From the IMG/VR virus record IMGVR_UViG_3300046543_000082, positions 1 to 64,000 of that record: DNA of 64,000 nt. One strand, 5' to 3'. Shown piece by piece: positions 1-44,304 of this stretch; the first letter of the stretch is position 1, and every line of letters starts with the position of its first letter. The notes under the pieces were generated by a model. The model saw only the letters and a program-made list of their open reading frames with translations. It was not told the DNA's origin and did not search any database. Source of the stretch: a virus. The position numbers were made by a program, and so were the translations under genes.

Positions 1-125
1 TGCACTGAAGAACAAGCAGCGCATCGGATAGCCCGGCAACGTGAGTTGGGAATGTCTAGCCCGAACTGCAATCGGGCCGACCGGATGACCTGGCGAAATC
101 GGAGCCAGCGACGCGACAGAGCCGA
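1..125 (+). repeat. 125-bp exact direct repeat, copy 1 (PL leader); may extend left of the window
   Basis: Identical to 40587-40711 by base comparison. Confidence 0.97.
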
Positions 126-2374: not shown

Positions 2375-3047
2375 TGTGATCGAGCAGCGCAGCGATGCGT
2401 GGCGCGCCGAGCGCGCAGGGAAGCTGACCGCGTCGCGCTTCATCGACGCAATCGCGATGACCCGTCCGGAGCCGGGCGAGGTCTACAAGTCTGGCCCGCG
2501 CAAGGGCCAGCCGAAGCTTCCCGAGTCTTTGGCGCCGCGCGAGAAGTACAAGCGCGAGGTCGCTTTCGAGCGGATGGCCGGTATCCCGCGGCATGAGATC
2601 AGCGGACAGGCGCTGCGATACGGGACGGAGGTCGAGCAGTTTGCTCGTGAGGCGTACGAGCTGGCGACAGGAAACATCGCTGTCGAGGCGCAGTTCGTGT
2701 GCCACCCCGACTATCCGTTTATCGGTGCCTCGCCGGACTTCCTCGTCGACGACGACGGCGGCGGCGAAATGAAATGCCCGATGGATGAAGGCGTTCACAT
2801 CGGCACGTGGCTCGACGGCGTGCCGCCGGATCACCTTCCGCAGATTCAAGGCGGGATGCTCGTCACCGGCCGGCAGTGGTGGGACTTCGTCTCATACGAC
2901 CCGCGCCAGTGCGAAAAGCTCCGCCTGTTCGTCAAGCGCGTCCCGCGCGACAGCACCTACATCGACAAGATCCTCCTCCCCGGCCTGCTGCAGTTCAACG
3001 CAGAGGTCGATCAGATGATCGAAGAACTCAACCGCCGCGCAGCATGA
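2367..3047 (+). CDS. exo: YqaJ/lambda-type exonuclease
   Basis: QRSDAW..R.GKLTAS, GASPD, EMKCP, QIQGGM, WDFVSYDPR motifs. Confidence 0.92.
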   Translation: MSDVIEQRSDAWRAERAGKLTASRFIDAIAMTRPEPGEVYKSGPRKGQPKLPESLAPREKYKREVAFERMAGIPRHEISGQALRYGTEVEQFAREAYELATGNIAVEAQFVCHPDYPFIGASPDFLVDDDGGGEMKCPMDEGVHIGTWLDGVPPDHLPQIQGGMLVTGRQWWDFVSYDPRQCEKLRLFVKRVPRDSTYIDKILLPGLLQFNAEVDQMIEELNRRAA

Positions 3048-3118
3048 CCGGAAGCAACATCGTGCTTGCTGTAATCGCTGCGATGTATGTCTTGCATTTT
3101 TTAATCGAAAGGATATGA
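3044..3118 (+). CDS. 24-aa TM microprotein MTGSNIVLAVIAAMYVLHFLIERI
   Basis: Coupled to exo stop; near-identical copy at 43428-43502. Confidence 0.6.
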   Translation: MTGSNIVLAVIAAMYVLHFLIERI

Positions 3119-3119
3119 G

Positions 3120-3326
3120 ATGAGCGAGAAGAACAACGGGGGCGCCGCCTTCCCTAATATCGAGTACATGGCTGAAGAGGGAATGTCATTGCGTGACTAC
3201 TTCGCGGGACAGGAGCTTGCGAAAACCATCGGCCCGGTGATGTGCGACGAGGCATCGTTTTATGACCGCCTCGCGGACCACTGCTACCGCATGGCCGATG
3301 CAATGATTCGCGCCCGTGACGCATGA
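3120..3326 (+). CDS. Common phage hypothetical protein (GGxAFP...GMSLRDYFA family)
   Basis: Characteristic motif and C-terminal YRMADAMIRAR. Confidence 0.8.
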   Translation: MSEKNNGGAAFPNIEYMAEEGMSLRDYFAGQELAKTIGPVMCDEASFYDRLADHCYRMADAMIRARDA

Positions 3327-5285: not shown

Positions 5286-5483
5286 ATGAAGCTTCGACTC
5301 GACGAATGGTTGCGCCGGGAATTCGAGCCGGCGCCGGCCATCCGAACCGCGCGCCTGTGGATTCGTGACGGAAAAATATGGCCGGCGCCCGTGAAGGTCG
5401 GGCGAGCGTACTATGTCGATCAGAACGCCACGTTTCAGGACCGATCAACCCGGCCTTCACTGGCCCAGCGCATACAAAAATAA
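5286..5483 (+). CDS. xis: Excisionase (lambda Xis-like)
   Basis: LDEW...P...T.RLW.RDGKIWPAPVKVGRAY; directly upstream of int. Confidence 0.9.
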   Translation: MKLRLDEWLRREFEPAPAIRTARLWIRDGKIWPAPVKVGRAYYVDQNATFQDRSTRPSLAQRIQK

Positions 5484-6592
5484 TGGCAGCCCGCCCACGG
5501 ATAAGACGCCGCGCCAACTGGCCGGCGAACCTGCATGAGCCGCGCCCCGGGTACTATACGTGGCTCGATCCGCGCGATAAGAAGACGCACATTCTTGGCC
5601 GCATTCCGCTCGCGCAGGCCATCCACGAGGCGCAAGAGGCGAACGTGATCGTGGAGAACGGGAAGCTGAATCGAACGCTTGCAGAGCGTCTATCAGCCCC
5701 GACGAACACGGTCGCCGACCTTATCAAACGTATGTCGACGGACGGCCAGAAGGCTTCGACGCTGAAAACGCGCGGGTATCTCGATGGAGCGATTGTCAAT
5801 GCAATCGGCACAGTCCCATGCAACGAACTGACGACAAAGCACGTCGCCGAGTTTATCGAGCCGCTTGTGGAGCAGGACAAAAAGCGCACGGCTCAGGCGA
5901 TTCGCAACCGCCTGATGTCAATTTGCCGGAAGGGAAAGCAACTCGGCTGGATGACAGAGAACCCGGTCACGGACACGGAACGGCCGAAGCCGAAGACGAA
6001 ACGGCGCCGGCTGAAGCTGGAAGAATTTCAGGCGATCTTCGAGAAGGCGCCGGAAGTGAACGACTGGTTGCAGAACGCGATGCTTCTGGCGCTCGTCTCA
6101 GGACAGGATCGGGCAACCATCGCGCGTTGGGAACGCTCGTTCTCGTCCGGAAGCGTCGTCCTTCTTCAGCGCTCGAAGACTTCGGTGAAGATCGAGATTC
6201 CAGTTGCGTTGCGACTCGACGCGATTGGTCTGTCGCTGGCTGATGTAATCGCGCGTTGCAAGTCGACCGGCGTCGTTAGCAAGTACCTGATCCACCATAT
6301 CAAGAATCAGGGGCGCGCCGTGCGTGGCTCGCATGTGAAGCTCGGCAGCATATCGATGGCGTTCGCCGCGGCGCGCGAGCTGGCGGGAATCACAGGCGAC
6401 GATCCGCCCACGTTTCACGAGATTCGCAGCCTGGCGAAGCGGCTTTACGACGAGCAGGGTGGCGTCGACACGAAAGCGTTGCTCGGCCACATGACCGACG
6501 CGATGGCGGAAATGTACGCCGACAGCCGGGGAATCGCGCCGATCAAAGTCACGATTGAGGAAAAAAATGGCGAGACCAAGAAGCAAGGGTAG
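5483..6592 (+). CDS. int: Tyrosine integrase with lambda-type N-terminal arm-binding domain
   Basis: PTFHEIRSLA, LLGH and catalytic Tyr (MYADSR); TAATG coupling with xis. Confidence 0.95.
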   Translation: MAARPRIRRRANWPANLHEPRPGYYTWLDPRDKKTHILGRIPLAQAIHEAQEANVIVENGKLNRTLAERLSAPTNTVADLIKRMSTDGQKASTLKTRGYLDGAIVNAIGTVPCNELTTKHVAEFIEPLVEQDKKRTAQAIRNRLMSICRKGKQLGWMTENPVTDTERPKPKTKRRRLKLEEFQAIFEKAPEVNDWLQNAMLLALVSGQDRATIARWERSFSSGSVVLLQRSKTSVKIEIPVALRLDAIGLSLADVIARCKSTGVVSKYLIHHIKNQGRAVRGSHVKLGSISMAFAAARELAGITGDDPPTFHEIRSLAKRLYDEQGGVDTKALLGHMTDAMAEMYADSRGIAPIKVTIEEKNGETKKQG

Positions 6593-7435: not shown

Positions 7436-8587
7436 ATGGGCCTACTTCGAATAATCCTGGCGCTGTCCGTCTTCGCGGCGCATGCCTACGACGCCTTTGG
7501 CGGTGGCGCGCGGCTGATGGACTGGCATTCCCCAGCGTCGAGAAATGGCATGCACCTGTACGTCTGGTCGGGGCATGCCGTCTTCGCGTTCTTCATCCTG
7601 TCCGGCTTCTACATGGCGATGGTGATCAACGAGAAGTATTCGAAGATGCCCGACGGAACGCGACGCTTCTATTTCAACCGCGCGCTGCGGCTGTATCCGG
7701 CGAACTGGGTGATCCTGGCCGGGTTCGCGCTGGTCTATGTCGCGAGCGGTACGCCGTCGTTTCTCACATTCACCCACGGCGAATCGTGGATGACGCCGAT
7801 CGCGTTCTTCTGCAACCTGTTCTTCTTCGGCGCGGAGATCCTTCCATTCAAGCATCCGCAGAACTGGCAGTATGTCATCGGCCCGATCTGGTCGCTGAGT
7901 CTCGAAGCCTACTTCTACATCCTGGCGCCGTTCATCGTCACGCGGTCGCTGAAGTCGATTGCGCTGCTGGCTGCCGCGAGCGCTGCGCTGCGCCTCACGC
8001 TCTACCATACCGGCGTCGGTCCCGAGCCGTGGCGATACTTCTTCTTCCCGTCCGATCTCGTCTTCTTCCTGATGGGCGTGATCGCGTACCGCCTGTTTGC
8101 CTGCGTGAAGGATGCCGCGTGGACGAAGCCGGCCGGGATCTTCGCGGCTGCAGTGATCTTCGGTCTGATCGCGTTCCCGCCATTCTGGAAATATGCTTCC
8201 AATCTCGACTGCTGGCAGAGTTGGGCGTTCTATTTAACCGTCGCCGCGGGCACGCCGTTCCTGTTCAGCCTGACGAAGAACAGCGCGATCGACAACTTCA
8301 TCGGCCAGCTTTCATACCCGGTTTATCTCGGGCACATCTTGGTCTTCTCGGCGATGCTGTGCTTCTACAATGGCCCGATGGACAAGGGATTGCTGTCGCT
8401 GATCCTGACATTCATCATGGCAGTCGGCATTTATCTAGCCGTGGACAAGCCGATCGATTCCATCAGGCACAACATCGCTAGGCGGCGGGCGCCGGCGCAG
8501 GAGCCGCAACCGGACCGTACTGCGCCAGTGCTGCCGACAGAGCCGTCTGGAACGCGATCAGGCCAATCTGGATTGCGGTCTTCGTAG
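7436..8587 (+). CDS. Acyltransferase-3 family membrane protein (Oac/OafA-like; probable lysogenic conversion)
   Basis: LR..LA..V..H, AV..FFILSGF, R.LRLYP, WSLSLE..FY, G.LSYPVYL.H motifs; next to attP. Confidence 0.9.
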   Translation: MGLLRIILALSVFAAHAYDAFGGGARLMDWHSPASRNGMHLYVWSGHAVFAFFILSGFYMAMVINEKYSKMPDGTRRFYFNRALRLYPANWVILAGFALVYVASGTPSFLTFTHGESWMTPIAFFCNLFFFGAEILPFKHPQNWQYVIGPIWSLSLEAYFYILAPFIVTRSLKSIALLAAASAALRLTLYHTGVGPEPWRYFFFPSDLVFFLMGVIAYRLFACVKDAAWTKPAGIFAAAVIFGLIAFPPFWKYASNLDCWQSWAFYLTVAAGTPFLFSLTKNSAIDNFIGQLSYPVYLGHILVFSAMLCFYNGPMDKGLLSLILTFIMAVGIYLAVDKPIDSIRHNIARRRAPAQEPQPDRTAPVLPTEPSGTRSGQSGLRSS

Positions 8588-28150: not shown

Positions 28151-30356
28151 GCTGCACCTCGCTCACGTCGTGATTGACCATCTGGCCGGCGTCGGCCGCC
28201 GCGTTCTGCTTCAACTGCGACGCGACGATCTGGCCGATGATCTTCACGACCGTCTGCCATTCCTGCGACTGGATCTGTGCGACCTGAATGTCGCGGTCTG
28301 CGCCGCCCTGCTGCGCCGCGTGCATCAGTTCGGCCTGCGCCTTCAGTTGCGCCGAGCGCTCGCCAGCCTGCGCCTGGATCAGATCGCCCAGGAGGCGGTT
28401 GTTCTCCGTCGCCTGCTTGCTCTGAGTTTGCATCTGCACCGTCTGCGCGCGCTGCCCTTCCGACTGGGCCTTGATCTGCGCGACCTGAACGTGCGGATCG
28501 GGCGGCGCATGCTGCTTCTGCTGCATCGCCTGCTGGTATTCCTGCGAGTCCGGGTCCATCGCGAATTCAGACGGGTTCTCGAAGCCGAGCAGGTGCGACA
28601 CCTTGCGGAACGTGTTGTAGGCTTGCTTCGGGCCAACCAGACCGAACACGGCCAGTTCCTTCTGCGCCTGACCCAGCAGCATCACGTTCGCGCGCGCTTC
28701 CTCGCGGTTGCCCGAGCCGAGGCCGACGTTGATCACCAGTTCGGACCGCTCGCGCCACTCAGCCGGATTCGTCGACAGCCATTGCTTGTTGGTCAGCATG
28801 ACCGTCATCTCTTCGTCCTGATGCCGGCGCAAGAGATTGTGGATCTTCTGGAACACGTCTTTGACGCCCTCAGCGAGCAGCCGCGCGACCAGTTCGACCT
28901 TGGCTGCCGCCGCCGACATCGAAGCCAACTGGCCGCCCTTGGTGACGTCCTGCAACGCATCTGCGTCGACGCCCATCGTGTCCTTGCCGATGCCTGTTCG
29001 CATCTCGCGCTGCAAGTCGCAGTACTCCATCGCCGGCAGGATCTGCGCCATCAGGTTCGACGGCTGCACAAACGGCATGATGTTGTCACCGATCGGCCCG
29101 TCGACGCGGATAATCCCGCCCGGACGCGACACAAGCAAGTCCTGCACGTTCACGTTGCGCCAGTTCACCGCGGTGCGCTGGTTGTTCGAAATGTAGATGT
29201 TGTCGAGCGCCTGGCGAAACAGCGTCGTCTTGCTGACCTGCAGATCGTTCAACAGGTCGTAGTAGCTGATGCCCACGTGCCTATGCGGCATGCGGATCGG
29301 CGAGCAGTACGAGAACGAGCCTTCCTCGATCTCCTCGTTTTCGAGGATCTTGTCGCCGCCCACCACCACGCGCCGAAACTCGGCGATGCCGTCGCCGTCG
29401 AAGTCGACGCGGATGTAGTTCGTCCGCACGTCGATCATCTGGCTGGCCGGATCGCTCGGATTCTCTTCCGAAAGTTGGTCGGTGACTTCGTTCCGCGCCA
29501 GCGAGATCAGGTCGAGCCATTCCGGCCGCGCCACGGTGATGGCGTCGATCATGTCCTTGTCGAAGCCCAGTTCCTTCGCCTCGGTGCGCGACATCGTGCG
29601 CATGTGCTGCGTGAATGGAGATTCGTCCAGACCGTGCCGAGCCTGCGGAGACACGCGCATTTCCTCGGGCGGAACACACTCGACCTTGACGCATCCTTTC
29701 TTCGACGTGCGCCGGATCTTGATGTCGAACGATGTCGACTGCTGGGGCGGCCCGCCCATCGGGTTCGTGATGATGTCGATCGTCTCTTTCTGCTCGAGAA
29801 CCTCGATCTCATCCTTCGTCTGAAGCAGCATAGCTACTTCGTTCTCGTTCAGGCCGGTGTACGACTCGACGCTCGTCTTGGTCTTCTTCACCCAATACGA
29901 GTTGACGTAGCCGTTGCGCAGCAGCAGCGCGTCCTTGAACATGTCGTGCAGGATGAAGAAGCCGGGGTTCTGCTTCATGAACACCCAGTTGACGACTTCC
30001 GTTTCCTGCTCGGCCTGTTCCTCGTCGCCCGGCGCTTCCGGATCGAACTGCACCGGCTTGCCCGAGCCGACGAACATGCGCATCAGCGTCGGCATGATCC
30101 ACTCGACCGTATCGCGCAACTCAGGCAGCACGATCTGCGAGCGATCCTCGACCTCGTTGCCCATCGGGCGGCCGAAATAGGCGTTCAGCGCGTTGTAGCG
30201 GTCGATCTCAAGCGTGGTCATCGTCTGACCGGCCGGCTTGATGTTGCCGCCGACAGACGGGCCGGCAGCGACGGACGAGCCGAGGGACGAGCGTTCGTAC
30301 TGCCCGATCAGCCCGAGCAATTCGTCGTCCGACATGCCCTTCTTCGTCTCAGCCAT
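28140..30356 (-). CDS. Portal protein
   Basis: RS..V..E.RDTVEW.MP.LMR.F, KDALL..NG, VPPEE, INVGLG.G; start MAETKK. Confidence 0.9.
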   Translation of the reverse strand: MAETKKGMSDDELLGLIGQYERSSLGSSVAAGPSVGGNIKPAGQTMTTLEIDRYNALNAYFGRPMGNEVEDRSQIVLPELRDTVEWIMPTLMRMFVGSGKPVQFDPEAPGDEEQAEQETEVVNWVFMKQNPGFFILHDMFKDALLLRNGYVNSYWVKKTKTSVESYTGLNENEVAMLLQTKDEIEVLEQKETIDIITNPMGGPPQQSTSFDIKIRRTSKKGCVKVECVPPEEMRVSPQARHGLDESPFTQHMRTMSRTEAKELGFDKDMIDAITVARPEWLDLISLARNEVTDQLSEENPSDPASQMIDVRTNYIRVDFDGDGIAEFRRVVVGGDKILENEEIEEGSFSYCSPIRMPHRHVGISYYDLLNDLQVSKTTLFRQALDNIYISNNQRTAVNWRNVNVQDLLVSRPGGIIRVDGPIGDNIMPFVQPSNLMAQILPAMEYCDLQREMRTGIGKDTMGVDADALQDVTKGGQLASMSAAAAKVELVARLLAEGVKDVFQKIHNLLRRHQDEEMTVMLTNKQWLSTNPAEWRERSELVINVGLGSGNREEARANVMLLGQAQKELAVFGLVGPKQAYNTFRKVSHLLGFENPSEFAMDPDSQEYQQAMQQKQHAPPDPHVQVAQIKAQSEGQRAQTVQMQTQSKQATENNRLLGDLIQAQAGERSAQLKAQAELMHAAQQGGADRDIQVAQIQSQEWQTVVKIIGQIVASQLKQNAAADAGQMVNHDVSEVQRGQ

Positions 30357-36555: not shown

Positions 36556-38330
36556 GCGGCCTCCGCTTTTGAGAAATGAAAAGCCGGACGCGGGTGCCAA
36601 TCTGCACTCTGCGTGAACGTCAGCGAATCCTTATGGAACCAGAGCTTTAGCGCGCCTTCATAACCCGTCGCGCGCTGTTTATGGCAGTACAGGCGCGCAT
36701 CTTCGGTATCTGGGCTAGGCTCACGCTCGATTTCCTTCTTCTTGTTCCGCCACACCGTGAAGACGTTATCGGCAAGGTCGGAAATTGCCCCGGTCCCCTT
36801 GATGTCGAGCTTGCCGGGTGCCTTCTCTTCCGATTCGCCTTTCCGTGCGTGTGCGATCAGGTGGACGTGCACGTTGAAATCGTTCTTGAAGTCGCACAGA
36901 GCGTCGACGAACTGTTTCTGTCCCTTGTAATCGTCTTCTGCGATGCCGCATTTCATCAACGAGTCGACAACGAAATGCGTAACGCGGTAACGCTTGGCGG
37001 CATAACGGAACGCCTCCATAAGCTTCTCTTGGCTGACGCTCCCCACATGGTCATAAAGCCACAGCGAGCCCGTCATCCACTCCGTAGCAGCCTTGACGAA
37101 CGGAATCGGAGCTTTAAGCGTGGCGCAAGCCTGCGCGGTCAGTCTAAAGAGCAGCATCTTCGGCTTGATTTCGCCCGAGAAAATGCAAATCCGCTCGCCG
37201 TTATTCATCAGGTTCACGAGAACGTTCCCTAGCAGGTCGCTCTTTCCGTGCCCGTTTATCCCGGTCCAGATCGACAATTCAGCCGGGCGCAGACGCACCC
37301 GATCCTGCCAAGTCGGCCACGGCATCGGCGAGCCAGTCATTCCGAGCGGCTGGCCGCTGAACATCTCTATCACGTCATCCAGGTACGCTTCGGGCGTCTT
37401 CAGGTCGGACGGCTCGATTCGCTTTGCCGCTGCAATCGCTTGGATGATCTCGTCACGGTCGACGCCGGCCTGTAATGCCTCGTTTGCATCCTTCAGGCGG
37501 AAATCGACGATTCGGCAGCGCTCAATACCGAGGCGCGCGGCAACCTCACGCACACCCTTCTGCCCTGCCTCGTCGGCATCGAACCACAAGAAAATCTCTT
37601 GGAAGCGTTCCAGACGCTCGAAGTCCTGGTCGATCCACTGGTGATTGCCAGCGCCCTGATTAATCGACAGCGCGTCGAATCCCCACTGGTACAGGCTCAT
37701 CGCATCGATCTCGCCTTCGACGATCAGAACCGCCTTCACGTCGTCCGTGATCAGGTCCCAACCGAACAAGCACGGCTCTGCGTTCGCAGCCTGCCACGTC
37801 TTTTTCTTGCCGTTCTCGTCACGCTTCAGCGCGAGGTGCTTGACGTTCACTAGTTCGTCGTCACGCAGGAACGGGAACACAATCGCGTCGTCTTCCTTCG
37901 AAGCGCCAACCTTGAACGCCTGGATCGTCTCCAGCGTCAGCTTTCGATCTTCGGTCAGGTAGGAAAGCACCCGACCTACGGGTTTCGTGACGGGCGGCTT
38001 AGACGGCTTCGCATAGACGCGCTTCGGGCCGGCAAAAGCCGGTTCGGAGATGCCGAGGTAGTTGCGGCACGCTTCGAACGCGTCACGCTTCGTAGACCCG
38101 TTCACCGCTGCCCAAAGGTCGATCAGATCGCCACCTTCACCAGTCGCGAAATCCTTCCAGACGCCAGCCTTGTTCCCGTTGATTCGTACCTTGAGCGAAT
38201 CTCCTGCTTCGCCCTGCACGCTGCCAACGCACCACTCTGCCCCTGCGCGCTTTCCGTTCGGAAGCAACATGCCGGCAATAGCTTCAGCCTCTTGTGCGAG
38301 TCGATACGATGTTTCTGTCCAGTTGCTCAT
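36552..38330 (-). CDS. Primase-helicase (Toprim + DnaB-like)
   Basis: IVEGEIDAMS, FDADEAG, KDANE, GINGHGKS, VVDSL, IAHARK. Confidence 0.93.
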   Translation of the reverse strand: MSNWTETSYRLAQEAEAIAGMLLPNGKRAGAEWCVGSVQGEAGDSLKVRINGNKAGVWKDFATGEGGDLIDLWAAVNGSTKRDAFEACRNYLGISEPAFAGPKRVYAKPSKPPVTKPVGRVLSYLTEDRKLTLETIQAFKVGASKEDDAIVFPFLRDDELVNVKHLALKRDENGKKKTWQAANAEPCLFGWDLITDDVKAVLIVEGEIDAMSLYQWGFDALSINQGAGNHQWIDQDFERLERFQEIFLWFDADEAGQKGVREVAARLGIERCRIVDFRLKDANEALQAGVDRDEIIQAIAAAKRIEPSDLKTPEAYLDDVIEMFSGQPLGMTGSPMPWPTWQDRVRLRPAELSIWTGINGHGKSDLLGNVLVNLMNNGERICIFSGEIKPKMLLFRLTAQACATLKAPIPFVKAATEWMTGSLWLYDHVGSVSQEKLMEAFRYAAKRYRVTHFVVDSLMKCGIAEDDYKGQKQFVDALCDFKNDFNVHVHLIAHARKGESEEKAPGKLDIKGTGAISDLADNVFTVWRNKKKEIEREPSPDTEDARLYCHKQRATGYEGALKLWFHKDSLTFTQSADWHPRPAFHFSKAEAA

Positions 38331-38332
38331 GA

Positions 38333-39049
38333 TCAGTTGTCGAACCGAATTCCGTTTTCGTCACGATCGCGTGCATATTCGCGATGCCCGTTCATCTGCC
38401 CTGCGTACTGCGCGAACTTTCTTGCTCCGAACAGCGTTTCCGGTCTCAGGAATTCGGCCATCTTCGGATCGTTCCCCCAGGCCCTTACCTTTCCGTCGAT
38501 TACTGCCTTGATCTCGTCGACCGTGGCGCCTTCCCTGATTCGTGCCATCACAAGCTCTGTGTTCGCCTTCACATTCCTGAAAGATCGCCCTGACTTCTCA
38601 TTCAGGTAATCGATGATTTCGGATGCAGGGTCCGGCTTGCCGGGCAATGTCTTTTCTGTCTCTGTCTCTGTCTCTGTCTCTGTCTCTTGTGCGGAAGCGC
38701 TACGCTTTGCTAGCGGCTTGCTAGCATCAGCTTGAGACTTGCTTGCATCAGACGCAAAGTCTTGATCCGTAAGCACTTCTAAAAAGCCGACTTCAATAAG
38801 AGGACCGAAATCAGGAGGGCCGCTCAGATATGCAACTCGCTGGATATAGCGAGGGTTATCCGGAATCTGATTGTCCGTAGCAGCTGCTAGCAACATGCAA
38901 GCAATTGCTAGCACCCTGCTAGCATCGTCTACAGAAACCCACGTTTCGCTAGCAAGAAGGTCGCGATGGAGTTTGATCCAAGGAGGATTTCTGTCCTTGT
39001 AGTGCTGGAAGCGCTCCCAGTTCTTGATGCGGTAGTACGTACCCATCAT
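38333..39049 (-). CDS. Replication initiator (O-like)
   Basis: IKNWERFQHYKDRNPPWIKL; C-terminal IIDYLN...FLRPETLFG. Confidence 0.85.
   Translation of the reverse strand: MMGTYYRIKNWERFQHYKDRNPPWIKLHRDLLASETWVSVDDASRVLAIACMLLAAATDNQIPDNPRYIQRVAYLSGPPDFGPLIEVGFLEVLTDQDFASDASKSQADASKPLAKRSASAQETETETETETEKTLPGKPDPASEIIDYLNEKSGRSFRNVKANTELVMARIREGATVDEIKAVIDGKVRAWGNDPKMAEFLRPETLFGARKFAQYAGQMNGHREYARDRDENGIRFDN
38655..38953. repeat. Putative replication origin: GCTAGC(A) iterons plus (TCTCTG)n tract
   Basis: About six GCTAGC palindromes in two clusters inside the initiator gene; hexamer tract encodes ETETET. Confidence 0.6.
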
Positions 39050-39202
39050 TCCCCCTTCAGGTCAAACAGACTGAATGCCTTTACGACCGTGGTTGAGGAA
39101 ATCCACCCCAGGCAGTACGCGCGCATCACGACTCGCTTCAAAACACTTTTCATGGCTACCCCAAGCTTTTTCTATGTGACGATCCGACTTTAGAGGGGTC
39201 CT

Positions 39203-39466
39203 TCAATCGCCCTCTTCAGGACCCATTCCAGCGACCATGAACATGCGGGTTTTATATAACCTAGCTACATGTTCACGCCCATACACCCGAATCATCATCA
39301 ATTCACGAATGAACTCGGAGGTTCCCATGCCTGCTTCGTAAGCCAGTCGGTCAAGTTCGTCTTTGGTCTCTTCGTCGACCCGAACCTTGACTTCAGCCGT
39401 CAATTTCCCGAGCGTGGTGGTGCGCCGTCCTAGTGCCATGCCTTCCCCTATTTGGTTGTCGTCCAT
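39203..39466 (-). CDS. CII-position regulator (ribbon-helix-helix-like)
   Basis: VKVRVDEETK..L..LA...G...SEFIR. Confidence 0.7.
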   Translation of the reverse strand: MDDNQIGEGMALGRRTTTLGKLTAEVKVRVDEETKDELDRLAYEAGMGTSEFIRELMMIRVYGREHVARLYKTRMFMVAGMGPEEGD

Positions 39467-39541
39467 GTGACCTCGTAGTACTAAGGGCCGCTGTACGGCT
39501 CTGGCTATTGCTGTTGCGTGTGGGTGCTACGAGGCTGCGGG

Positions 39542-39742
39542 TTATGCCGCTGCTTGTTCTGTTGCGTGTTCTTCCAGGTCGGCGAAAAGCTCGGGCCTGA
39601 CGAGTCGGAGCCATTGCAGACGCAGTTTCGGGATGCCCTTCTTGCGCCATCCGGAGATCGACGCGGGTTCGATCTCGAAGTAATTAGCGGCCGCAGTCGT
39701 GCCGCCCATGCGGTCAATCACGGTGTTGGCTAAGGAAATCAT
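39542..39742 (-). CDS. cro: Cro-like repressor
   Basis: VID.MGGT.A.A..F.I...SISGWRK.GIP; divergent from cI. Confidence 0.85.
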   Translation of the reverse strand: MISLANTVIDRMGGTTAAANYFEIEPASISGWRKKGIPKLRLQWLRLVRPELFADLEEHATEQAAA

Positions 39743-39770
39743 GGGGTGCCTCGCTGTTTAACTAGCCCCT

Positions 39771-39882
39771 ATGTTAGCCAAACCTAATCCAGAAAGCAAG
39801 TCATACCTAACTATAAAGTTGCCCACGCCTAATTATTCGGACGCGAGCATACCTAAGATGCCACCTGATAGGCTTGCCTAAT
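39771..39882. promoter_or_regulatory. OR region: PR (TTGCTT-17-TAACAT, minus strand) and five CCTAA operator half-sites
   Basis: CCTAA at 39783, 39806, 39828, 39852, 39877 (22-25 bp period); best site ATAGG-N4-CCTAA. Confidence 0.75.
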
Positions 39883-40348
39883 GAACTGGAACCGAAGAAT
39901 TACTGAAGCCAGAGAAGCCCGCTCGATGTCCAAGGCGGAGTTGGCGCGCGCCTGTAATGTGTCGGCGCCGACCGTGACCGACTGGGAAAGCGGGAAAATA
40001 AAAAACCTCGACGCGGCCAATATGCTGACGATCTGCGAGGTTTTGGGAGTCGAACCCCGGTGGCTAGTGTGGGGATTTGAGAGCGGCAAATCGCCGAACA
40101 GAGGGGACTTCGTGCCTATTACCGGCGAAGCAAAAAAGCTAATTCAGTGCGTCATGCGTCTGGACAAGGGGGGGCCAAAAGTACGACAAACGTTTGCTTA
40201 CACTCTCGGCATCCTTGAAATTGTCGAAAGATTGGGATTGGTACATGATGCCGATGTGGTGGCCGAGCTTGCAGAACAGGAGCAGCTCTTGGCACTCCAC
40301 GCCGAGCCATCTAGGGTTTTAAAACATGCCCCCCGCAAGCACAAATGA
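39881..40348 (+). CDS. cI: CI-like XRE repressor without recognisable S24 peptidase domain
   Basis: N-terminal HTH; only 155 aa. Confidence 0.85.
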   Translation: MNWNRRITEAREARSMSKAELARACNVSAPTVTDWESGKIKNLDAANMLTICEVLGVEPRWLVWGFESGKSPNRGDFVPITGEAKKLIQCVMRLDKGGPKVRQTFAYTLGILEIVERLGLVHDADVVAELAEQEQLLALHAEPSRVLKHAPRKHK

Positions 40349-40499
40349 AAAAACCATCGTCAGCATGGACCTTTACCGGCAGCGTCGAACTGTCGAATCC
40401 AAGCAGAAGGAGTCAACCGATCCGGCCGAAGAAGCGTTAAACGAAATCGCCCGATACCTTCTGATGGCCGTTCGCGTCATCACGGCTAGGCGTCACTGA
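40326..40499 (+). CDS. 57-aa hypothetical protein co-transcribed with cI
   Basis: MPPASTNEKTIVSMDLYRQRR...; ends just before terminator. Confidence 0.5.
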   Translation: MPPASTNEKTIVSMDLYRQRRTVESKQKESTDPAEEALNEIARYLLMAVRVITARRH

Positions 40500-40506
40500 A
40501 TTCCCC

Positions 40507-40530
40507 TCCCGCTTCGGCGGGATTTTTTTT
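40507..40530 (+). terminator. Intrinsic terminator after cI operon
   Basis: TCCCGC-TTCG-GCGGGA-T8. Confidence 0.85.
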
Positions 40531-40550
40531 GTCTTTTCGGTATAGAACGC

Positions 40551-40579
40551 TTGACTCTACCGGTGTAGCGTCCTACACT
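40551..40579 (+). promoter_or_regulatory. PL promoter with overlapping inverted repeat GTGTAG-N4-CTACAC
   Basis: TTGACT-17 bp-TACACT; start site near 40586. Confidence 0.8.
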
Positions 40580-40586
40580 ACATCCA

Positions 40587-40711
40587 TGCACTGAAGAACA
40601 AGCAGCGCATCGGATAGCCCGGCAACGTGAGTTGGGAATGTCTAGCCCGAACTGCAATCGGGCCGACCGGATGACCTGGCGAAATCGGAGCCAGCGACGC
40701 GACAGAGCCGA
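40587..40711 (+). repeat. 125-bp exact direct repeat, copy 2
   Basis: Identical to 1-125. Confidence 0.97.
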
Positions 40712-40771
40712 TGAAGTTTTATCAAGGCGTCTTGCTAAGGGCGCCGTGACAAAACCACAAAGGGGATAGAT

Positions 40772-40867
40772 ATGACGATCAAATTCCGCACGTTTAACGT
40801 TGTTCGTGGCACACACAACCTTCGCGTGAAGGTCTGGCTTAAACAACTGCGCTCGGAGGCTATGTGA
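40772..40867 (+). CDS. 31-aa basic peptide
   Basis: Same GGGGATAGA RBS as 183-392; GTGA coupling. Confidence 0.5.
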   Translation: MTIKFRTFNVVRGTHNLRVKVWLKQLRSEAM

Positions 40868-41004
40868 GCGACCTCGCACTTGACTTAATCGAACTGAAGC
40901 GCCTCGCTGCTGGCGGCATGGGCGCTTTGACCGAAAAACTGTTGCACGAAGTAGCGGCTCGGATCATCGCTTCGGGGCTGCGTGACTTTCGGGAGGGATG
41001 CTGA
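40864..41004 (+). CDS. Homolog of 403-543
   Basis: GGAGG RBS; near-identical protein. Confidence 0.7.
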   Translation: MSDLALDLIELKRLAAGGMGALTEKLLHEVAARIIASGLRDFREGC

Positions 41005-41005
41005 C

Positions 41006-41344
41006 ATGGAAGCGAAAGAAAGGCTTACCGCACGCATGGAACGCGTCTACACCGCAGACGGCAAACACATCGTCACTGTATGGGCCGAGTCCGTCGACTG
41101 CAAGGCGCAGACGGGCGAATCTTATCTCGGCATGCGCGATCGCACGGAACCGATGCGGATTTCGGCTCAGCAGCAGACGTTTGACCGTGCTCGTCTGTTC
41201 GCCGCCGCTCCTGACCTTCTCGAAGCGCTGATCTTGCTTGAAGCGGAAATGGTTCTTTCCGGCAATGCCGGGGCGACTGATTACGGATGGAAGCCTGCGA
41301 TCGAAAAGACGCGCGCCGCTATCGCCAAAGCCACCGGAGACTGA
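41006..41344 (+). CDS. Phage hypothetical protein (ARLxAAAPDLLEAL family)
   Basis: Motif plus RAAIAKATG end; flanked by 11-bp direct repeat. Confidence 0.8.
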   Translation: MEAKERLTARMERVYTADGKHIVTVWAESVDCKAQTGESYLGMRDRTEPMRISAQQQTFDRARLFAAAPDLLEALILLEAEMVLSGNAGATDYGWKPAIEKTRAAIAKATGD

Positions 41345-41345
41345 C

Positions 41346-41414
41346 ATGGAACTCGCAATCATATTCGCGGTACTCGGGTTTGGTGATTGGTTTCTTTTCG
41401 GGTGGACGCGATGA
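41346..41414 (+). CDS. Homolog of microprotein 545-613
   Basis: Near-identical sequence; GGAG RBS. Confidence 0.6.
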   Translation: MELAIIFAVLGFGDWFLFGWTR

Positions 41415-41575
41415 GATACGGATGCACTGTGATCAACGCGACCCGGCTCGGCGAGTTTCTCTACGACAAAGAGCTTGCCGAGTACGACGACGAAGGATAC
41501 GACGGTTGGATCGACGACGGCGATAGAAGCGACGAGCAATTCGACCGGATGGACAGACAAAACGAACTGAGGTGA
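41411..41575 (+). CDS. Acidic protein, homolog of 610-768
   Basis: Sequence similarity. Confidence 0.7.
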   Translation: MRYGCTVINATRLGEFLYDKELAEYDDEGYDGWIDDGDRSDEQFDRMDRQNELR

Positions 41576-41578
41576 GCG

Positions 41579-41674
41579 ATGAAACATCCGTTATTGGCTT
41601 GGGTGGCTGCGGTTAGTGTCGGTCTTCTCTCGGGAAGCGTGATTGTGATGTCGGCGACGGGCTTGGGGTTCTGA
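41579..41674 (+). CDS. 31-aa TM microprotein
   Basis: GAGGTG RBS; hydrophobic. Confidence 0.55.
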   Translation: MKHPLLAWVAAVSVGLLSGSVIVMSATGLGF

Positions 41675-41675
41675 G

Positions 41676-41882
41676 ATGAAGACATACCACTACGCCGACA
41701 AGCGGCCAAGCATCTACCCGCAATTCATGATGGATGATTTCGGCGACGAGATCATGACGGTTCATGAAGTGACGCCGGACATCGATAGCTTCCAGATCAA
41801 GATGCATCCGGATACGTATTGGCACATTTTCGACTTGTCCGGAAAAGTGCTTGAGTGGGCAGACGGCCACGATGAGGAATAG
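41676..41882 (+). CDS. Hypothetical acidic protein
   Basis: 68-aa ORF in operon. Confidence 0.65.
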   Translation: MKTYHYADKRPSIYPQFMMDDFGDEIMTVHEVTPDIDSFQIKMHPDTYWHIFDLSGKVLEWADGHDEE

Positions 41883-41885
41883 ATC

Positions 41886-41957
41886 ATGTGGATGCTAATT
41901 GGCTACTTCGCCATCGGATCGACACTGGCGATTGCGTTTATTCGGGGTGCGCGATGA
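41886..41957 (+). CDS. TM microprotein, homolog of 1061-1144
   Basis: GAGG RBS; shared YFAIGSTLAIAFIRGAR. Confidence 0.6.
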   Translation: MWMLIGYFAIGSTLAIAFIRGAR

Positions 41958-42079
41958 AACTTGTAACGGAGCAAGAATTGAATAAATGCGTAACGCTGAG
42001 CGATTTGGCGGTCGGCATTGCAGTAGGCGCGATCATGGGCCTCGTGTTCTACGGTGCGCTTCTCGTCGGGATCGGATGA
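41954..42079 (+). CDS. TM protein, homolog of 1281-1406
   Basis: Sequence similarity. Confidence 0.65.
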   Translation: MKLVTEQELNKCVTLSDLAVGIAVGAIMGLVFYGALLVGIG

Positions 42080-42080
42080 G

Positions 42081-42206
42081 ATGCTCAAACTCGCGAAGAT
42101 ATGGGCCGCAACCATGCTTCTCGCGCTGCTCTACCTGATGGCAGGCGGCTTGATGGATAGCTTGGAGCAGCGTGCAGAACAGTGCCGCACCGTTCATTGC
42201 ACGTAG
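42081..42206 (+). CDS. TM protein, homolog of 1408-1533
   Basis: Sequence similarity. Confidence 0.6.
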   Translation: MLKLAKIWAATMLLALLYLMAGGLMDSLEQRAEQCRTVHCT

Positions 42207-42255
42207 GCGCGTAGTACAACTAATGTCGGAATCACGGTCAACTTGGATAACCGTA

Positions 42256-42762
42256 ATGGACGAAAAATTAACGCATTGGAAGAGATTGGTTAACCCGGAT
42301 TACATAGGCGCCTACGCGCTTGATCCGGATCAGGACCTGACCGTGACTATCGACTATGTGACACGGGAAGCAGTTAAGGGGACTGGGGGGAAGTCGGAAG
42401 AGTGCACTGTGGCGCACCTAGTCGGTCAGAAGCCGTTGATTCTCAACGCGACGAATTCGAAGTCGATCCATCGCTTGTATGGACCCTACATAGAACAATG
42501 GAGCGGAAAGCAGATTACTTTGTTCGCCAGCACCACGCGCATGGGCGGTGAGACTGTTGAGTGTCTTCGCATCCGCGCCACGGTAGCCAAGCCAGCTAAG
42601 AAGCGAATCGATGACGCTCGGTTGAACAAGGCGATTGAATCAATCAAGGGTGGCCAGTATACGACTGGAAAGCTCCGCGCTCAGTTCGATCTGACACAAG
42701 AGCAAGAAACGAAGGTTGACGAAGAGATAAAAGCGCATATGGAGTCCAGCCATGAAGAATGA
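42256..42762 (+). CDS. Putative ssDNA-binding/annealing protein in the bet position
   Basis: THWK....PDYIGAY...KPLILN.TN...IEQW.GK.ITL; upstream of exonuclease. Confidence 0.6.
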   Translation: MDEKLTHWKRLVNPDYIGAYALDPDQDLTVTIDYVTREAVKGTGGKSEECTVAHLVGQKPLILNATNSKSIHRLYGPYIEQWSGKQITLFASTTRMGGETVECLRIRATVAKPAKKRIDDARLNKAIESIKGGQYTTGKLRAQFDLTQEQETKVDEEIKAHMESSHEE

Positions 42763-42798: not shown

Positions 42799-43428
42799 AT
42801 GACGTTCCGAATCCGCGCAAGCTCACTTGGGAAAATAATGGCCGAGCCGAAGAACAAGGGCGAAATACTTTCCGTGGGAGCGAAAACCTACGTTGAGGAA
42901 CTGGCTAAAGAGTTTGTTTATGGGTTTCAGCGCGTCATCACATCAAAGGAAATGGACAAAGGAATCATCGTTGAAAACGCCTCCATTGCGTTGCTCAACG
43001 ATGTGATGTTCGCCAGCTATGTGAAGAACGCCGAGCGGAAGAACAATGATTGGCTGACCGGTGAGTGCGACATCTTCACAGGCTCGAAGATCATCGATAT
43101 CAAGTCGTCGTGGTCGCTCCAGACATTCCCCGCTACGGTGTTTGCCGGACGTGATACGGGCTACGAATGGCAACTTCGTTCGTACATGATGCTATGGGAT
43201 GTTGATGAGGCAGAGATCGCCTACTGTCTCGTCACGACGCCCGATGAACTGATCCGGTTCGAACCAACCGAGATTCATTACGTCGATCACATCGATCCGG
43301 CTCTGCGCGTTACTCGCGTCCCGTACCAGCGCGACAAGGCGCTCGAAGAGAAGATCAAGGCGAAAGTCGAAGCGGCTCGTGCGTACTTCGATGAGGTAGT
43401 CGAACTGATCGCAATCGAGCACGCGTAA
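42799..43428 (+). CDS. Lambda-exonuclease-like protein
   Basis: RASSLG, G...E, TGECDI, IDIKSSW, YEWQL..YM.L. Confidence 0.85.
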   Translation: MTFRIRASSLGKIMAEPKNKGEILSVGAKTYVEELAKEFVYGFQRVITSKEMDKGIIVENASIALLNDVMFASYVKNAERKNNDWLTGECDIFTGSKIIDIKSSWSLQTFPATVFAGRDTGYEWQLRSYMMLWDVDEAEIAYCLVTTPDELIRFEPTEIHYVDHIDPALRVTRVPYQRDKALEEKIKAKVEAARAYFDEVVELIAIEHA

Positions 43429-43502
43429 TGACCGGAAGCGACATCGTGCTTGCTGTAATCGCTGCGATGTATGTCTTGCATTTTTTAATCGAAAGGATAT
43501 GA
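43428..43502 (+). CDS. TM microprotein, homolog of 3044-3118
   Basis: One nucleotide difference; TAATG coupling. Confidence 0.6.
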   Translation: MTGSDIVLAVIAAMYVLHFLIERI

Positions 43503-43503
43503 G

Positions 43504-44304
43504 ATGACGAAGATTGATCTTGAGTCGGTAGTTCTGAAGAGTGGCGCACATGAGTCGCCGGAAGACGGTATGTGTCTGCTCGAAGTCGTGAGCATGTTTG
43601 CCGATGAGGATTTCGGAGACTCGCCGGCGTGCGTTGATTCGATCCTCGCTCAGTTTGGGCGGTCATGGAATGACGGAATGCGCTCCGACGCTGAGCGCGC
43701 CCAATTGAAGCAATACATCGCACGGCTACCCGGCACGAACAAGGGTTCGGCGCTCTCGCAAAAGCGAGGATGGATGGCGCTTGACTGGCTTATTCGTGTG
43801 CACACGGCAGCGTGGCTCGCTTTGAATCCCGGCCTCGTGCATCACGCCGAAACGCTCAAAATGCTACCGCCGATTACCTGCTCGGCCGATCTCGTTGCGG
43901 CACAACCGAAGCTCGATGCAGCAAAGAAAGATGCGGCCGCCGCATGGGCCGCCGCAGGGGCCGCCGCACGGGACGCCGCATGGGACGCCGCATGGGCCGC
44001 CGCACGGGCCGCCGCACGGGACGCCGCATGGGCCGCCGCATGGGCCGCCGCACGGGACGCCGCAGGGGACGCCGCACGGGCCGCCGCACGGGACGCCGCA
44101 TGGGACGCCGCATGGGCCGCCGCAGGGGCCGCCGCACGGGCCGCCGCACGGGACGCCGCATGGGCCGCCGCATGGGACGCCGCAGGGGCCGCCGCACGGG
44201 ACGCCGCAGGGGACGCCGCAGGGGCGAAACTTGAACCCACCGTTATTGAATTGCAGGCGAGCGCCCACGAACTATTTTCGCGGATGATCGAAGCAACCGA
44301 ATAA
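43504..44304 (+). CDS. Phage protein with AA[WRG][AD] tetrapeptide repeat
   Basis: L..GAH......MC.LE.V.....E...D.P.CV N-terminus plus repeat. Confidence 0.85.
   Translation: MTKIDLESVVLKSGAHESPEDGMCLLEVVSMFADEDFGDSPACVDSILAQFGRSWNDGMRSDAERAQLKQYIARLPGTNKGSALSQKRGWMALDWLIRVHTAAWLALNPGLVHHAETLKMLPPITCSADLVAAQPKLDAAKKDAAAAWAAAGAAARDAAWDAAWAAARAAARDAAWAAAWAAARDAAGDAARAAARDAAWDAAWAAAGAAARAAARDAAWAAAWDAAGAAARDAAGDAAGAKLEPTVIELQASAHELFSRMIEATE
43939..44226 (+). repeat. 24 x 12-bp tandem repeat GCCGCA[T/C/G]GGG[C/A]C
   Basis: Counted from the sequence and translation. Confidence 0.95.

Follow-up and report, generated by a model that had tools for sequence, protein, structure and literature searches.

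A structured non-coding RNA family in the PL leader of temperate Burkholderia phages and its possible role in antitermination

In temperate Burkholderia phages, the transcript initiated at the early-left promoter PL harbors in its 5' leader, as judged from sequence comparison, a new family of structured non-coding RNA that is carried as a cassette, and the first ~190 bases of that transcript are predicted to constitute a conserved, structured and pseudoknotted non-coding RNA. The family is represented twice in IMG/VR record IMGVR_UViG_3300046543_000082 (80,256 bp), the first 64 kb of which were analysed and are hereafter referred to as 'the window'. Self-comparison resolves this record into two distinct, mosaic temperate phage genomes of ~40 kb, arranged head to tail as unit A (1–40586) and unit B (40587–80256). 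The present analysis establishes (i) the fold of the RNA, (ii) its non-coding nature, (iii) its fixed position and orientation, downstream of PL and preceding a recombination/integration operon, and (iv) that no phage protein is shared by its bearers. Based on the position of the RNA, it is then tempting to speculate that it acts in cis, while still nascent, by modifying host RNA polymerase, that is, by antitermination resembling that of the put RNAs but not homologous to it; we put this forward as a tentative proposal which we consider possible rather than probable.

Homologous loci, fold and non-coding nature

Pattern scans combined with a covariance model yielded ~40 homologous loci with 27 distinct core sequences, which can be classified into three subtypes represented by the window (type I), Burkholderia phage KL4 (type II) and genome G065 (type III). 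Burkholderia phages, prophages and metagenomes are the sources of these loci, which include IMG/VR contigs and three Burkholderiaceae genomes that serve as species representatives (B. turbans LMG 29316, B. cenocepacia NCTC13227 and G065). The model search of genomes matched one of 95 genus and two of 150 family representatives, numbers which constitute a floor because few candidates were scored per genome. The covariance model (R1) assigns 128.5 bits to the core of unit B and, when run on the window with filters off, retrieves only two copies, one per phage genome, with the next match having an E-value of 0.13; under the same settings, no second copy was detected in a PR operon within the window. 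In all loci the element lies in sense orientation in a leader. In the Rfam/Infernal search proposed in the initial annotation of this DNA, no family in Rfam 15 matched the window or 12 homologous loci at the gathering threshold, and at E ≤ 10 only noise was obtained, none of it on the core.

The fold is supported by covariation across homologous leaders, which the initial annotation had likewise suggested as a check. In alignment A4, comprising the 27 distinct sequences, 93.9% of the cells pair as compared with 28–41% for slid controls, double compensatory changes are found in 18 of the 27 pairs, and 0 of 500 shuffles reach the support of the fold. For alignment A2 (MAFFT, 22 sequences), from which the fold was read, the corresponding figures are 95.7% of cells paired against 28–42% with slid partners, changes on both sides in 14 of 27 pairs, and again 0 of 500 shuffles. 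RNAalifold alone recovers the helices P1, P2 and P3. Since folding of single sequences performs no better than shuffles (z = −0.30 for 125 nt and −1.49 for 189 nt), all structural support is comparative.

A ~100-nt core flanked by two hairpins makes up the RNA, with all features located on the plus strand. The 5'-terminal hairpin P0 (40586–40609 in unit B; 1–23 in unit A, where the contig starts at the second base of the hairpin) has an A/C-rich loop. It is followed by the conserved core, which spans 40612–40711 in unit B and comprises P1, P2, P4 enclosing P3, and a pseudoknot. In the numbering of unit A, P1 (26–56) consists of the outer pairs 26-56, 28-55, 29-54 and 30-53 and an inner helix (32–37/45–50), which is capped by a seven-nucleotide loop, A-R-C-G-U-G-A (38–44); 6 of its 10 pairs exhibit double changes, and in types II and III G.A or C.A mismatches occur at 35-47 and 36-46. 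A linker of only 1–2 nt leads to P2 (59–77), with the helix 59–64/72–77 and the loop R-C-U-G-N-A-A, in which 5 of 6 pairs are doubly changed and 99.4% of the cells are paired. P4 (82–113) is formed by the pairs 82-113 and 83-112, the latter being variable among the sequences (G-C 17, U-G 7, C-G 3), and encloses P3 (90–94/104–108), for which 4 of 5 pairs are doubly changed and 99.3% of the cells are paired. The pseudoknot (99–125) connects loop positions 99–102 of P3 with the 3' tail (122–125), with 100–102/122–124 as the supported register; the pseudoknot having been left out of the model to which alignment A4 was fitted, pair 101-123 is G-C in 21 and C-G in 5 cases, and pair 102-122 is G-C in 26 cases and C-G in one. 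The invariant, single-stranded segment GCGACAGAG (113–121) is located between the two strands of the pseudoknot. P5, a stable hairpin that begins 3–4 nt past the core, completes the RNA: in unit B it is two-tiered (40716–40755) and is followed by a ribosome binding site (RBS) and the ATG of the first gene at 40773, and in unit A it spans 127–167, with the RBS at 172–176 and the first gene at 183–392. The sequences of P0 and P5 change from lineage to lineage, a hairpin being formed in all of them, and the core holds ~40 invariant unpaired positions.

Two of the four structural elements described in the initial annotation are thus confirmed by covariation, namely stem-loop 2 (GCCCGA/UCGGGC, 59–64/72–77) and the third element (CUGGC/GCCAG, 90–94/104–108), and its statement that two stem-loops lie one base apart is consistent with the short linker between P1 and P2. 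The other two elements had been assigned to a wrong register: the CAAC-GUGA-GUUG hairpin with a GNRA loop exhibits 0 double changes with 59% of the cells paired, and the CCGG/UCGG pseudoknot 0 double changes with 83% of the cells paired, neither being better than shuffles. Covariation rejects both registers in favor of 32–37/45–50 and 100–102/122–124, respectively.

The claim that the repeat is non-coding likewise holds across the homologs. The only open reading frame (ORF) with a conserved start, an arginine-rich frame beginning at the ATG at position 52, was considered as a leader peptide and rejected on account of an in-frame TAG in the GGTAGA variants and of 1-nt indels. In L052, L069 and every type III sequence, 1-nt indels that arose independently disrupt all frames of both strands. 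The same stops and indels argue against coding on the minus strand, as is annotated in KL4, where the hypothetical protein AWD90817.1 overlies the RNA element on the opposite strand (L003:3893–4288; KL4 record 7942–8337, minus). Because the indels of the homologs break that frame as well, the annotation of AWD90817.1 is likely spurious.

The PL leader and the architecture of the record

The second copy of the repeat is preceded by an intrinsic terminator (40507–40530, plus strand), which ends the immunity transcript encoding the repressor and a 57-aa ORF, and by the predicted strong sigma-70-like promoter TTGACT-17-TACACT (40551–40579, plus strand), which is the only such site across 38000–42500. 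Transcription should hence start at ~40586, the first base of P0. The repeat itself starts ~7 nt past the −10 hexamer, in agreement with the earlier claim that it begins at the predicted PL start site. Nearly all homologous loci have an equivalent terminator 60–100 nt ahead of the promoter, and the −35 and −10 hexamers of the homologs occupy aligned positions despite otherwise different sequence. The distance between start site and core is flexible, with ~20 nt in type I and ~110 nt in KL4. A single metatranscriptome contig (n = 1) covers only the upstream gene, as far as the terminator.

By synteny, this promoter is a lambda-type PL. Upstream of the RNA, on the same strand, lie a helix-turn-helix repressor (39881–40348), the 57-aa ORF and the terminator; the opposite strand encodes a Cro-like DNA-binding protein, a replication initiator and a primase-helicase; downstream, again on the same strand, follow small ORFs, Bet/RecT (1586–2374), an exonuclease, a methyltransferase/methylase and an integrase (5378–6592). 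Phage KL4 exhibits the same synteny (repressor C, small gene, RNA element, ~20 early genes, exonuclease VIII and RecT), and the type III element likewise precedes Bet. The RNA occupies the slot in the PL leader that is taken by nutL in lambda and by putL in HK022 (PMC9378689).

The promoter at 40551–40579 belongs to the immunity system of unit B, because the operator-like half-site GGTATAGA (40538–40546), which directly precedes the −35 hexamer, is found again in the divergent PR/PRM region of unit B near 79.65 kb, whereas the PR/PRM region of unit A carries ACCTAA repeats instead. The operator/PL region of unit A itself is missing from the contig. The two units appear to be hetero-immune, with ACCTAA repeats (39750–39880) versus GTATAG-type half-sites (40538–40568 and ~79640–79720).

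Positions 1–125 and 40587–40711 are 100% identical and, as previously described, the sequences of the two units diverge beyond position 125. The contig starts exactly at this 125-nt repeat and its end falls within a second shared segment (79997–80256 matching 40138–40397 at 98%), and the junction of the units coincides with the PL leader instead of an att site. Moreover, many other IMG/VR contigs begin or end at the RNA element, with one of them carrying it at both ends (L041 and L066). We infer that the record is probably chimeric, that is, an assembly concatenation of two co-occurring phages via shared repeats. Because the two head-to-tail genomes start and end in shared segments, and because many contigs break there, the perfect identity of the two copies probably reflects a single collapsed node of the assembly graph. 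Hence, identity of the repeat in both units, although correctly reported in the initial annotation, carries no independent weight, and the accompanying caveat that it may partly reflect assembly collapse is supported by the contig breaks at the element and by the two-genome record. As a repeat, the RNA motif fragments metagenomic phage assemblies or renders them chimeric.

Two further repeats were observed in the record. An 80-nt segment (3044–3123 and 43428–43507) is 99% identical between the otherwise divergent units; it contains a small hydrophobic ORF ending in a hairpin with a T6 tract behind it, a possible internal terminator of the PL operon. In addition, a 12-nt unit is present in ~23 tandem copies (43875–44282) within an ORF of unit B (43504–44304).

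Distribution of the cassette and its possible partner

The core of KL4 shares ~80% nucleotide identity with units A and B, with no more than five proteins of KL4 having a match in either unit (24–65% identity). Furthermore, no ORF family was found to be common to all bearers. That the core is kept while almost no proteins are shared makes a dedicated phage partner unlikely and points to a host target. The invariant bases of the RNA, judging from their conservation, probably face a host macromolecule.

Comparison with related loci indicates that the core and P5 form an optional cassette. Six loci (L210–L215) match the bearers in the small gene, the kind of terminator and the presence of a PL promoter and are devoid of both core and P5; two of them (L210 and L213) also share the first gene of unit A. 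Ahead of the RBS, their leader holds a P0-like hairpin with a CA-rich loop and nothing else; no substitute device is present. Hence, the RNA is not needed for expression of the operon. As a separate observation, the loop of the 5' hairpin of the PL transcript is A/C-rich, with ARN-like AAC/AAA/CAA repeats (8–16 in the window; L210:3275–3310), and such a loop occurs in phages with and without the cassette.

Candidate functions in relation to known leader RNAs

The initial annotation had suggested a put-like antiterminator RNA. The put RNA of HK022 comprises ~70 nt forming two stem-loops joined by one unpaired base and mediates protein-independent antitermination, acting via the zinc-binding domain of the β' subunit of RNA polymerase. 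HK022 has put in both early operons, with putR lying 270 nt from PR, and about ten put sequences are known. The RNA described here resembles put in that it (i) is non-coding and located in the nascent early transcript directly downstream of PL in a lambdoid phage lacking N, (ii) contains two adjacent hairpins 1–2 nt apart, (iii) lacks a phage protein partner, and (iv) is located at a flexible distance from the promoter. In contrast to put, its core comprises ~100 nt with an additional P4/P3 domain and a pseudoknot, and it is present in one copy with none behind PR, while HK022 carries a put site in both operons; furthermore, its host is a β-proteobacterium and it is optional among close relatives. 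Homology to put was rejected with covariance models in both directions: R1 detects nothing at E ≤ 10 in putL (28238–28318, minus strand) or putR (29449–29532, plus strand) of HK022, and a put model (R2) retrieves its own training sequences only and nothing in seven element-bearing loci. What stands of the suggestion is thus a structured leader at the PL start with P1 and P2 in close succession, and not membership in the put family.

To our knowledge, processive antitermination by RNA alone has been described for the put RNAs, a small family in enterobacterial phages, and for EAR, which lies in the eps operon of Bacillales. Like EAR, the RNA described here is a candidate RNA-only, multi-helix element of ~100–120 nt located within an operon; unlike EAR, it has no Rfam match, and it is found in unrelated hosts and in a phage context. 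It might represent an additional class of processive antiterminator that acts as RNA alone and has no structural relationship to the known ones, namely a ~100-nt pseudoknotted RNA which reprograms the RNA polymerase of β-proteobacteria, requires no phage protein and is portable among unrelated Burkholderia phages, a bolder reading that we regard as doubtful.

If the RNA does serve antitermination as proposed above, it would fold while emerging from the polymerase and act in cis on the host elongation complex, with the action of put on the β' zinc-binding domain as a model. The modified polymerase would then resist Rho-dependent and intrinsic termination, chiefly the former, across the long early-left operon of tiny ORFs, and the distal genes (bet/exo, methylase and int) would be expressed more. 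Since the RNA would serve only PL, a non-essential operon, it could well be an optional and dispensable accessory. Antitermination is rendered plausible by the combination of a covarying structured RNA, the PL slot, the finding of no protein-based system and the absence of a shared phage partner, as well as by the flexible promoter distance (as for put) and by candidate terminators inside the operon, that is, the hairpin followed by T6 at 3044–3123, which is 99% conserved between the units, and a hairpin followed by a U-run 94–260 nt past the core in three KL4-type loci. Several findings argue against it: the lack of put homology, the single copy with none in PR, and the relatives L210–L215, which do without the RNA. 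Strong intrinsic terminators downstream are, moreover, rare, and comparison of bearers with non-bearers revealed no excess of them in the former. Finally, the complex pseudoknot and the many invariant loop bases fit a ligand- or protein-binding RNA equally well.

Nearly as good as antitermination in cis is the alternative of a trans-acting or otherwise stable RNA, while control by the leader, a riboswitch, a nut-like site and a ribozyme follow. A ~190-nt species cut from the leader, with its ends protected by P0 and P5, would titrate a conserved host macromolecule, with a defence protein, an RNase, a global RNA-binding protein or RNA polymerase being conceivable targets from the earliest stage of infection or induction. 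Such a role would agree with an optional, self-contained cassette that is found in unrelated phages and absent from close relatives, in the manner of 'moron-like' genes; with flanking hairpins that always accompany the core; with the many invariant unpaired bases, which suggest a specific macromolecular partner; and with the absence of a phage partner. However, the element has neither a terminator nor a promoter of its own and is always in sense orientation in a leader, and no downstream pairing targets were found for the loops L1 and L2: a survey of the 500 nt downstream in 29 loci revealed no consistent sites of at least 6 nt complementary to either of them. On the whole, we consider action in trans unlikely, though still worth taking seriously. 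The C4 RNAs of phages P1 and P7 and the CI RNA of P4, which control immunity, are similarly small structured RNAs in the leader of a phage early operon; unlike these, the RNA described here has no Rfam C4 match and no conserved loop-complementary sites downstream, and it is accompanied by ordinary protein repressors.

Rather improbable, in our view, is a leader that acts in cis by controlling mRNA stability or translation of the first gene, as in the lambda N leader, which consists of nutL and an RNase III hairpin next to the RBS of N. The two leaders occupy the same slot and share the order of promoter, recognition RNA and long hairpin just before the first RBS, the transcript opens with the hairpin P0, and P5 of type I ends 4–8 nt before the Shine-Dalgarno sequence. 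Yet the first gene varies among members, types II and III insert 130–400 nt more leader between core and first gene, the RBS is not sequestered in a conserved way, and for stabilisation alone neither a pseudoknot nor ~40 invariant unpaired bases would be required. Also unlike the lambda N leader, there is no boxA, no boxB-type 15-nt hairpin and no N gene. Specifically, no boxA (CGCUCUUUA-like) was found with up to 3 mismatches in either leader (1–200 and 40587–40790), and no N-like or PHROG antiterminator family was found among 30 ORFs around PL, in the immunity region and in the early-left operon, so that the earlier statement that neither an N-like gene nor boxA is evident stands, and an N/nut system, which would have refuted an RNA-only device, was not encountered.

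In the case of a riboswitch, the core would be a small-molecule or second-messenger aptamer that gates expression of the early-left operon by host state. In favor of such an RNA is the combination of a pseudoknotted and conserved core, invariant junction bases and a variable hairpin downstream, but no expression platform was detected, since P5 has no U-run, the RBS is free and no conserved alternative pairing with the core is found; in addition, the downstream genes are varied phage genes and no Rfam riboswitch matches, which makes the riboswitch very improbable. The same holds, if anything more so, for a nut-like site that recruits an unrecognised N-like protein, of phage or host, to RNA polymerase. 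Its position equals that of nutL and the loop of P3 starts with GAA, like a boxB loop; this loop is, however, engaged in the pseudoknot, no protein is common to all bearers, boxA is absent, and among the first genes, which differ between members, none encodes an arginine-rich N-like protein. Most improbable of all is a self-cleaving ribozyme or other catalytic leader RNA, for although the fold is compact and pseudoknotted with invariant junction nucleotides, and new ribozyme classes are often phage-associated, no known ribozyme family matches and nothing indicates a cleavage site.

Should antitermination in cis turn out to be correct, the RNA would provide a second test case, in another bacterial class, of a nascent RNA that reprograms RNA polymerase, and it combines strong covariation with a pseudoknot and the lack of a protein partner, while its helices offer clear mutants for this endeavor. 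Should its function differ, for example as a decoy of a host factor or as a sensor, it would still be a phage non-coding RNA that is new, widely shared and produced as soon as infection begins.

Additional modules were observed in the leaders of some members. In types II and III, an extra module located ~95–125 nt past the core is closed by a long-range stem of the type GAAUGGCG...CGCCAUUC (L191:1650–1790; L202:4890–5040; L020). Its interior in L191 is tRNA-like, with D-arm-like and T-arm-like sequences; ARAGORN called no tRNA in this stretch. In the KL4-type leaders L003 (4190–4290), L015 and L022, a GC hairpin followed by U5-6 is located inside the loop of another conserved hairpin, which is intact in L068 and L184; this block may be a terminator-like module inserted between the RNA and the first gene.
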